Shown: positions 29,665 to 30,495 of the stretch, piece by piece
Layout of the letters: every line of letters starts with the position of its first letter
Numbering within the stretch: position 1 is the first letter of the stretch
Assembly (NCBI RefSeq): GCF_000012905.2
Contig: NC_007493.2
Coordinates: forward strand, 2,250,001 to 2,282,000
DNA from: Cereibacter sphaeroides 2.4.1
Lineage (GTDB): Bacteria; Pseudomonadota; Alphaproteobacteria; Rhodobacterales; Rhodobacteraceae
DNA length: 32,000 nt
Direction of reading: 5' to 3'
The notes under the pieces: generated by a model
Told to the model about the DNA's origin: nothing
Seen by the model: only the letters and a program-made list of their open reading frames with translations
Databases searched by the model: none
Made by a program: the position numbers and the translations under genes

Positions 29665-30495
29665 TCAGGCGGCGTGCGCGCCCGAGGCCTTCAGCTCCTC
29701 GACCACCGCCTCGAGCGGCAGATCGATGCGCTCGATGGCCAGTTCCTCGAGGAAGAGCCGTTCCATGCGGGTGAGCGGGCCCTCGATCACCGCCACATGC
29801 CCCCTCGCCGAGCGTTTCGCGATCTGGCGGGCGTAGGTGCGCAGGAGCTGGTCGTCGAACCGGCAGCCGAGGAAGAGGAAACCGCGGCCGGTGCGGCGGT
29901 TCTGCACCTCCTCGGGGATCGGGCTCTGGATGTCGATCTCGGTCAGGACCTCGACATAGTCGCTGTCGGAGACGAGGAAGGAATGGCCCGGCACCGCCAT
30001 CCCGTGCGGCTTGTAGAGGAGGCTCCGCCAGCCGGGATCGGCCGCGGAACAGAGCGCGTCGGCCGCGTCGTAGGCGCGGTGCCAGATCTCGGCCCATTCG
30101 CCGTTGCGGCTGACGCCCTGCACGAGGCCCCAGTCGGGCGCCCCCTGCCGGAAGCGGCGCACGAGGCCCGCATCGTACCAGGCATCGACCACCATCGGCG
30201 GGCGCACCGCGGCGAGCCAGTCGTGGATCGGGTTCGGCCCCGTGGGCGCGGCGAAGGCCTTCACCACCATGGCCTCGAGCGTGGCGCGGAAGCGGCGCGT
30301 CTCGACGAACTGCGCCGCGGCCCAGAGATTGCCCTGCGCGCGCCGGGGCACCCGCACCTCGGCCTCGATCCGGGCCGAGAGCGCGGCGGGCGCGGCGAGC
30401 GCCCCGCCGAGCGCGGCCACGCCCGGCCCCAGATAGGGCACGACCCGGCCCTGCCCCACCGCTTCGAGCGCCACGCGCAGCATCTCGCGCGTCAT
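29665..30495 (-). CDS. SIR2-like domain protein (SIR2_2-type), last cistron of the fdxN-LRV-nifZ-nifT string
   Basis: 276 aa ORF. ATG is 4 nt after the nifT stop, with GGAGGA 8 nt upstream. Blocks [38 protein letters not shown]...SDSDYVEVL and [17 protein letters not shown] match my memory of the SIR2-like family. No HMM search was run. Confidence 0.7.

Follow-up and report, generated by a model that had tools for sequence, protein, structure and literature searches.

A SIR2-fold gene that follows nifT in nitrogen fixation operons and may encode a non-catalytic accessory protein

Results

A SIR2-fold gene closes a string of nif genes

In a 32,000-nucleotide (nt) stretch of DNA from Cereibacter sphaeroides 2.4.1 (NCBI RefSeq assembly GCF_000012905.2, contig NC_007493.2, positions 2,250,001 to 2,282,000; hereafter the window, with coordinates counted from its first letter), a gene with a SIR2_2-type fold stands among the nitrogen fixation (nif) genes, directly after nifT. 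This gene (29665-30495, minus strand), which we call the SIR2-like gene, has an ATG start and 276 codons, encodes a protein of 276 amino acids (aa), and is an orthologue of Rcc03262 of Rhodobacter capsulatus. It is clearly coding, because its signature matches that of the genome (G+C content of 0.94 at third codon positions, GC3, versus 0.50 at second positions, GC2) and because its product has thousands of homologues, the top match reaching an E-value of 3e-176.

The upstream neighbour, nifT/fixU (30500-30715, minus strand; 71 aa; Pfam NifT, 88 bits; PDB 2jn4, E 1e-19), ends with a stop codon at 30500-30502, which leaves a gap of 4 nt before the SIR2-like ATG at 30495. A GGAGGA ribosome-binding site, read from the sequence, lies within the 3' end of nifT (30504-30509, minus strand), and the junction reads CGGGAGGAATGA GCCC ATG, which can also be written GGAGGAATGA-GCCC-ATG. 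Pfam verified the rest of the upstream string, all of it on the minus strand. The stop of nifZ (30712-30996; Pfam NifZ, 101 bits) overlaps the start of nifT (ATGA, 30712-30715). The gene of the 4Fe-4S-binding leucine-rich-repeat-variant (LRV) protein (30983-31888; Pfam LRV_FeS, 82 bits, and LRV, 61 bits), whose true start is probably downstream of 31888, shares 14 nt with nifZ (30983-30996). As far as the window shows, the string begins with the gene of an fdxN-type 2x[4Fe-4S] ferredoxin (31750-31944; Pfam Fer4 families). The fdxN-LRV-nifZ-nifT-SIR2 string is packed for coupled translation and the SIR2-like gene is its last cistron. An earlier note on this DNA, written from the letters alone, had described the same reading frame and junction, with the same 443 nt to the nifH start codon, and the same place at the end of the string; Pfam and the junction sequence agree with it on all these points, and the strand, which the note had left unstated, is the minus one.

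The SIR2 fold is kept and its motifs have changed

The sole Pfam family that matches the protein is SIR2_2 (PF13289), with 60.8 bits for a cut-off of 24.5 (E 2e-16, residues 102-255). The sirtuin model SIR2 (PF02146) and the PADLOC models gave no match to it even at E-values up to 10, nor did NCBIfam profiles or DraT-like models match it. An AlphaFold2 model built with 25 homologues is confident (predicted local distance difference test, pLDDT, 87.7; predicted template modelling score, pTM, 0.88), and the best Foldseek matches of this model are the SIR2 domains of DSR2, ThsA and KomC (probability 1.00, E about 1e-8, template modelling score 0.6-0.71, 14-17% identity). Broader profile matches range from 2e-16 to 2e-8, with SeThsA at 2e-16 and KomC at 7e-14. 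The Pfam match, the confident model and the structural and profile matches together make membership of the SIR2 fold solid, in line with what the earlier note had deduced from motif blocks.

All the blocks that it had named are present and align with motifs of ThsA and KomC. The stretch VVPYLGPGV falls on FIGAGLS of ThsA/KomC-type SIR2_2 proteins, VVDAWYD on WTTNYD, with Trp106 at the position of the catalytic Asn, and LLYKPHG on YKLHG, with His164 at the position of the catalytic His; the C-terminal block around L207-FLGCRFDDQ-216 falls on FLFLGFSFED. The key residues of the window protein are thus Y21-L-G23-P-G25, a degenerate GAG loop, D104-A-W106-Y-D108, Y161-K-P-H164-G, the block from S176 to 194, L207-216, and H233. 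The protein also carries the complete signature of its clade, D-x-W-Y-D, SDxD[YF]VE[VI]LTEIDIQxPIP and G-C-R-F, which is invariant or nearly so across orthologues. More distant single-domain relatives keep the canonical TTNYD, HG and GAGAS motifs.

Conservation was assessed in 240 orthologues, 121 of alpha-type and 119 of beta/gamma-type. The catalytic Asn position (W106) is Trp in every one of them, so the Asn-to-Trp change first noticed in the window protein holds for the whole set. The catalytic His position (H164) is less constant: His in 115 and Asn in six of the alpha-type proteins, and in the beta/gamma-type Leu (54), Ile (29), Phe (16), His (15), Trp (3) or Met (2), that is, a residue other than His in 104 of 119. 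Members with a verified nif context read YAPYG on the Rhizobium plasmid pSym, where Tyr takes the place of His, YKPLG in Methylococcus and YKPIG in Paraburkholderia. Orthologues without His are, where checked, equally nif-linked, and the HG block that the earlier note had named does not look like a conserved functional feature of the clade. Other positions of the ancestral site have changed as well. G25, the second Gly of the GAG loop (G23-P-G25-V-A in the window protein), has given way to Glu or Asp in roughly half of the set; R212, at the Ser of the G-x-S motif (G210-C-R212 in place of G-Y/F-S), is Arg in 227 of 240; and D108, the nicotinamide-binding Asp, is Ser, Gly or Ala in 27 of the 119 beta/gamma-type proteins.

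Another set of residues is fixed. Y21, G23, Q62, E65, R70, S176-D-x-D179, V181-E, T185-E-I-D-I-Q190, P192, P194, R201, F213, Q216, R219, K227-R and E245 are invariant in both groups, and C211, R223, S229 and H233 are nearly so. The AlphaFold2 model has low confidence only at residues 184-191, which are the invariant LTEIDIQS segment; low confidence in the most invariant motif would suit a stretch that takes up its fold only when bound to a partner. As judged from the alignment, the nif SIR2 clade has lost residues required for the cleavage of nicotinamide adenine dinucleotide (NAD+), and its NAD chemistry looks lost. The earlier note had suggested that Trp at the Asn position might mean NAD binding without hydrolysis, but the acidic residues at G25 in about half of the clade and the Arg in place of the G-x-S Ser make NAD binding itself doubtful.

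The conserved neighbour is nifT

A scan of one genome per species turned up no fewer than 548 relatives. Gene order was surveyed in the 80 best loci, which are alphaproteobacterial and include Cereibacter, Rhodovulum, R. capsulatus, Salipiger, Bradyrhizobium, Novosphingobium, Xanthobacter, Rhodoblastus, Rhodopila, Telmatospirillum and Methylocapsa. A nifT homologue lies directly upstream on the same strand in all 80. The two genes overlap by 4 nt in 39 loci, are spaced by -1 to +5 nt in 38 (hence -4 to +5 nt in 77 of 80), and are 27-38 nt apart in the remaining three. On the other side, just 23 of the 80 loci have a nifH on the same strand after the SIR2-like gene. The genes after the SIR2-like gene run on toward fdxN-LRV-nifZ in Bradyrhizobium-type loci, and in R. 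capsulatus nifH lies elsewhere. The window protein is 88% identical to that of Cereibacter azotoformans and 64% identical to that of the R. capsulatus locus (L018). The earlier note had asked whether orthologues travel with nifT and nifH, and the answer divides: the conserved relationship of the SIR2-like gene is with nifT, not with nifH.

The place of the gene inside nif operons is strictly conserved over Alpha-, Beta- and Gammaproteobacteria, Verrucomicrobia and Nitrospirota, and named relatives of the clade come from Azoarcus, Rhodoferax, Sideroxydans, Methylococcus, Methylacidimicrobium and Nitrospirota. In a search of plasmids, all 74 matches were from rhizobia or other diazotrophs. The order is nifA-nifB-fdxN-nifZ-nifT-SIR2 on pSym of Rhizobium phaseoli and LRV-nifZ-nifZ-...-nifT-DUF6129-like-DegT-(small ORFs)-SIR2 on the plasmids of Methylococcus and Paraburkholderia, where ORFs are open reading frames. 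An exhaustive profile search of 1.84 billion cluster representatives returned 768 matches, 40 of them below 1e-30. Among the divergent metagenomic representatives, P0128, P0133 and P0125 (39-43% identity) are encoded in nif clusters downstream of nifT, with DUF6129 and/or DegT genes in between; for P0124, the SIR2-like gene is immediately preceded by a DegT fragment. The contigs of P0126, P0165, P0208 and P0244 are too short for gene context. The alphaproteobacterial loci, the plasmids and the representatives P0128, P0133 and P0125 all uphold the specific link to nitrogen fixation that the earlier note had proposed.

The genes found between nifT and the SIR2-like gene in beta/gamma-type loci recur: a small DUF6129-like protein and/or a DegT/DnrJ-type aminotransferase (L082:5725-5997, L087:4738-5004, L096:3915-5338, L097:4430-5858, L089:3822-4979), whose homologues in Bradyrhizobium-type loci lie downstream of nifZ. 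On the Methylococcus plasmid a conserved small protein of about 90 aa (LIHVxFxPDGTV...GGRGxFR; L096:5696-5977) is encoded directly upstream of the SIR2-like gene, and in the metagenomic protein P0360 (382 aa) the same small protein is fused to the SIR2-like domain. This fusion suggests that the two are physical partners in that lineage. P0360 had been considered as a NifT fusion, which was rejected since the fused part is a different small protein, and this protein is absent from the window and from alpha-type loci. The chromosome of Bradyrhizobium sp. BWA-3-5 (NZ_CP136626.1) has two copies of the nifT-SIR2 locus (L051 and L052), about 150 kilobases apart, which agree in the coordinates and identities of nifT, the SIR2-like gene, fdxN and nifZ.

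A transcription unit of its own for nifH

The Fe protein gene nifH (28346-29221, minus strand; Pfam Fer4_NifH, 456 bits) starts 443 nt after the SIR2-like stop if its ATG is that at 29221, a start codon kept across species, and 437 nt after it if an alternative in-frame ATG two codons upstream is used. A NifA upstream activator sequence (UAS) lies at 29384-29415 on the minus strand, made of TGT-N10-ACA (29384-29399) and a tandem TGTCGG half-site, and is invariant in five species. The sigma-54 -24/-12 promoter of nifHDK follows at about 29288-29303 on the same strand (TGGCAC-N5-CTGCT), and CTTGGCAC...CTGCTT is kept in five species; UAS and promoter elements are shared by Cereibacter and Rhodovulum. 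A strict sigma-54 pattern, TGG-N8-TTGC, missed this promoter, whose -12 element is CTGC, and it was found by reading the sequence and by comparison across species. The regulatory region also has an AT-rich stretch, a possible IHF site. With its own UAS and sigma-54 promoter, nifH is a separate transcription unit, and since it also follows the SIR2-like gene in so few loci, the adjacency of the two in the window is positional and lineage-specific.

Between the SIR2-like gene and the nifH promoter there is a perfect 8-bp GC hairpin, CCGGGGGC-GCGCA-GCCCCCGG (29463-29483, minus strand). A copy of its 17-nt core with 94% identity is found at 29638-29654, just past the SIR2-like stop codon; the hairpin itself recurs unchanged in C. 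azotoformans, and in Rhodovulum its place is taken by a classic terminator. It looks like a repetitive extragenic palindromic (REP) element or a terminator, yet it has no T run. Two ORFs that span the SIR2-like gene and the intergenic region in antisense or out of frame, 28346-30097 on the minus strand (583 aa) and 29140-30540 on the plus strand (466 aa), were discarded as artefacts of the 70% GC content.

Downstream in the window, Pfam identified nifH, nifD, nifK, nifE, nifX and DUF269, and then nifQ, an iscA-like gene, nifU, nifS, nifV, nifW and rpoN. The NifH encoded in the window carries an intact GCAGRGVI, and library scans of the window proteins found neither draT or draG nor defence partner genes, all three as the earlier note had read them. 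At the edge of the nif cluster, beside DUF1810, HlyIII and rpoN genes, there are two convergent Ku genes of non-homologous end joining (11551-12339, plus strand, and 12442-13245, minus strand); no LigD was seen in the window.

A nif-linked sister clade in Campylobacterota

The nearest sister clade, from Campylobacterota (Sulfuricurvum, Sulfurimonas and Lebetimonas), has about 25% identity to the nifT-linked clade and is itself nif-linked. The Campylobacterota proteins lack the His (KP[LFM]G), as most beta/gamma-type members of the nifT-linked clade do, and share the KPxG and SDADYV..LTE motifs with that clade, but they keep the Asn (VDTNRD) and have no TEIDIQ motif. Their operon encodes a redoxin-like protein of about 170 aa, the SIR2-like protein, ClpP in some cases, and ClpX, and is divergent from nifB-nifV...nifHDK (L098:9501-12066; L099:9486-12751; L093:4222-7106), with no NifT or NifZ within 10 kilobases. 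Two deep clades of degenerate SIR2-like genes are thus tied to nitrogen fixation, each with small partners of its own, and in one of them the partners include the unfoldase ClpX. A nif-specific paralogue of ClpX, ClpX2, governs the levels of NifB and NifEN in Azotobacter vinelandii (Martinez-Noel 2011, as cited in PMC5715403). The SIR2-like/ClpX operon of Lebetimonas is followed directly by a type I restriction-modification cluster and a GmrSD-like gene (L098:12093-20843), an adjacency to defence genes that looks like a coincidence and could mislead annotation based on context.

Discussion

The observations on the SIR2-like gene can be brought together if it is a dedicated accessory of nitrogen fixation, the last translationally coupled cistron of a NifA-dependent fdxN-LRV-nifZ-nifT operon. 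Its product keeps the SIR2 (SIR2_2) fold, the NAD+-cleaving machinery of its clade has decayed, and a new invariant surface would have been fixed instead (R201, C211-R-F, Q216, R219, R223, K227-R-S, H233 and others). Made in step with NifT, it most probably acts as a non-catalytic binding or adaptor protein, presumably in a complex with NifT that helps to mature, stabilise or turn over the components of nitrogenase. With moderate confidence we take it for a SIR2-fold accessory protein that is dedicated to nif, has no catalytic role and joins NifT in the maturation or turnover of nitrogenase. A more specific version, in which the SIR2-like protein and NifT make up a module reserved for nitrogenase and the former NADase fold serves as a ligand- or partner-gated adaptor over maturation or over ClpXP-dependent turnover of NifB, NifEN or apo-NifDK, is much more tentative.

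Expression of the R. capsulatus orthologue fits the operon assignment. Proteomics detected Rcc03262, listed as a SIR2 family protein beside NifT, at a NifT-like level in the wild type, and the protein was absent from the nifA1-nifA2 deletion strain (PMC6925177, Table 1); its expression is NifA-dependent. The promoter of the window operon lies outside the window, and NifA dependence is known from this orthologue.

Several points count against this interpretation. The alpha-type proteins, the window protein among them, keep D104, D108 and, in 115 of 121 cases, the His, which leaves room for residual or altered catalysis in that sub-clade. A new active site or ligand site could just as well be built from the many invariant charged residues and the new invariant His, H233. 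That the two genes are syntenic and translationally coupled hints at a complex with NifT and stops short of proving it. The phenotypes of nifT mutants are also weak: its deletion is silent or has little effect in Klebsiella and Azotobacter and has little in Leptolyngbya (PMC6428710), so the nifT-SIR2 pair may be conditionally important or redundant. In Leptolyngbya boryana the nifT deletion raises nitrogenase activity (PMC6428710).

We considered four other explanations, here in falling order of likelihood. The protein might be a non-catalytic nucleotide sensor, in which a remodelled cleft with Trp106 stacked on a ring still binds NAD(H), ADP-ribose or another nucleotide and keeps nitrogenase assembly or activity informed of redox or energy state; this is in essence the binding without hydrolysis that the earlier note had suggested. 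The confidently predicted SIR2/Rossmann-like fold, the invariance of G23, D104, W106 and Y107 in the former nucleotide-binding motifs, and the suitability of an aromatic residue at the Asn position for binding without cleavage all speak for such a role. However, established structures of sirtuins with NAD make a conserved NAD site hard to square with Glu or Asp at G25 in some half of the orthologues, Arg at position 212 in 227 of 240, and the loss of D108 in 27 of the 119 beta/gamma-type proteins, and we think a sensor rather unlikely. The invariant polar and charged residues, unusually many in this clade, could instead indicate an enzyme with a new active site formed by D104, W106, D177, D179, E186, D188, R201, R212, H233 and others, acting for instance on a nucleotide-sugar or an organic-acid intermediate along with the DegT-type aminotransferase often encoded nearby. 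The recurrence of DegT/DnrJ and DUF6129 genes at beta/gamma-type loci, and close by in those of Bradyrhizobium type, counts in favour of such an enzyme, but neither the window nor the Rhodobacterales-type operon has a DegT gene, so it is not an obligate partner; no known nitrogenase cofactor step is short of such an enzyme, and no chemical precedent is known for SIR2 folds that lack the Asn/His pair. This explanation is less probable than a sensor.

Slightly less probable again is an active NAD+-dependent SIR2 enzyme, be it deacylase, ADP-ribosyltransferase or NADase, that modifies NifH or other Nif proteins in the manner of DraT, an idea close to the NAD-linked regulatory role that the earlier note had favoured and also put forward in a Thalassolituus preprint. 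It draws on membership of SIR2_2, on the retention of H164, D104 and D108 in the window protein, on the adjacent nifH and on the deacetylation speculated upon in the literature. Against it stand the Trp in place of Asn in 240 of 240 orthologues, the altered GAG and G-x-S motifs, and the loss of the His from most beta/gamma-type proteins and from the Rhizobium pSym orthologue in equivalent nif contexts. Moreover, nifH adjacency is not conserved, and R. capsulatus has functional draTG (Masepohl 1993, as cited in PMC6925177) alongside Rcc03262 (locus L018). With both present in one organism, the SIR2-like gene is no stand-in for DraT, and the anti-correlation with draTG that the earlier note had envisaged fails there. 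From these residues and gene contexts, an NAD-dependent modifier of NifH seems unlikely. As for a phage-defence effector of the Thoeris, DSR or Kongming-like kinds that came by chance to lie inside the nif cluster, the nearest solved structures are indeed the defence NADases DSR2, ThsA and KomC. Yet no PADLOC model matches the protein, which is a single domain of 276 aa with no sensor domain or partner gene and with nifT and nifH for neighbours; its position in nif operons is fixed (80 of 80 loci, and nif or sym plasmids), its catalytic residues are lost in the clade, and expression of the R. capsulatus orthologue is NifA-dependent. Synteny effectively refutes the defence reading, which we regard as extremely improbable.

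A nif-dedicated accessory working with NifT remains the interpretation we prefer, and its gene has already been noted in print. Besides Rcc03262, a SIR2-like gene is drawn in the Rhodovulum nif operon (PMC9412634), ZMO1821 is the SIR2-like gene of the Zymomonas mobilis nif cluster (PMC8594446), sir2 is mentioned for the Paenirhizobium nif cluster (PMC13455631), and the Thalassolituus preprint reports that a SIR2-like gene adjoins nifH in 23 of 25 genomes and speculates on deacetylation. We found no functional study of the nif SIR2-like family in the literature, and a 2026 review of nitrogenase regulation does not mention SIR2 or NifT. The earlier note had called the function undescribed, which stands for the function, whereas the existence of the gene and its nif location are already reported in at least five papers. 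In this family the SIR2 fold appears to have taken on a new functional form.

For decades NifT has counted as an orphan among the nif genes despite a nuclear magnetic resonance structure (2jn4), and a SIR2-fold gene that is its strictly conserved, coupled neighbour over several phyla, and whose family has lost the NAD-cleaving residues, makes the question of its function testable. If the module with NifT were real, NifT would finally be given a function, and nitrogenase would have a layer of post-translational control independent of DraT/DraG. Our results also correct an annotation: database names for members of the clade carry 'NAD-dependent protein deacylase', and papers already take the gene as a sign that nitrogenase is controlled by deacetylation. 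For nitrogenase engineering, this is a widely conserved accessory gene that has been left out of minimal nif gene sets.

It remains to place the family among known systems. The closest relatives are its own uncharacterised members, since Rcc03262, ZMO1821 and the SIR2-like genes of Rhodovulum, Thalassolituus and Paenirhizobium belong to one orthologous family with the window gene; Rcc03262 shares with the latter the spot directly after nifT and presumably membership of the NifA regulon, and differs in that nifH does not follow. The defence SIR2 NADases ThsA (6lhx, 7uxt, 8bto), DSR2 (8k98, 8wya) and KomC (8zsf, 9xvc) share the SIR2_2 fold and the order of motifs with the nif protein, but the latter has Trp for the Asn, its His appears dispensable, and there is no SLOG domain, C-terminal domain or KomAB-type sensor or partner, and nif operons are not defence islands. 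Classical sirtuins, deacylases of the CobB/Sir2Tm type, are distant kin within the Rossmann-type SIR2 superfamily, from which the nif protein differs in having no Zn module and no conservation of the equivalents of the catalytic Asn and His. DraT and DraG are encoded next to nifH in some diazotrophs and use NAD+ to regulate nitrogenase; the nif SIR2-like protein belongs to an unrelated fold family, and its clade, unlike these enzymes, does not have the residues that cleave NAD.

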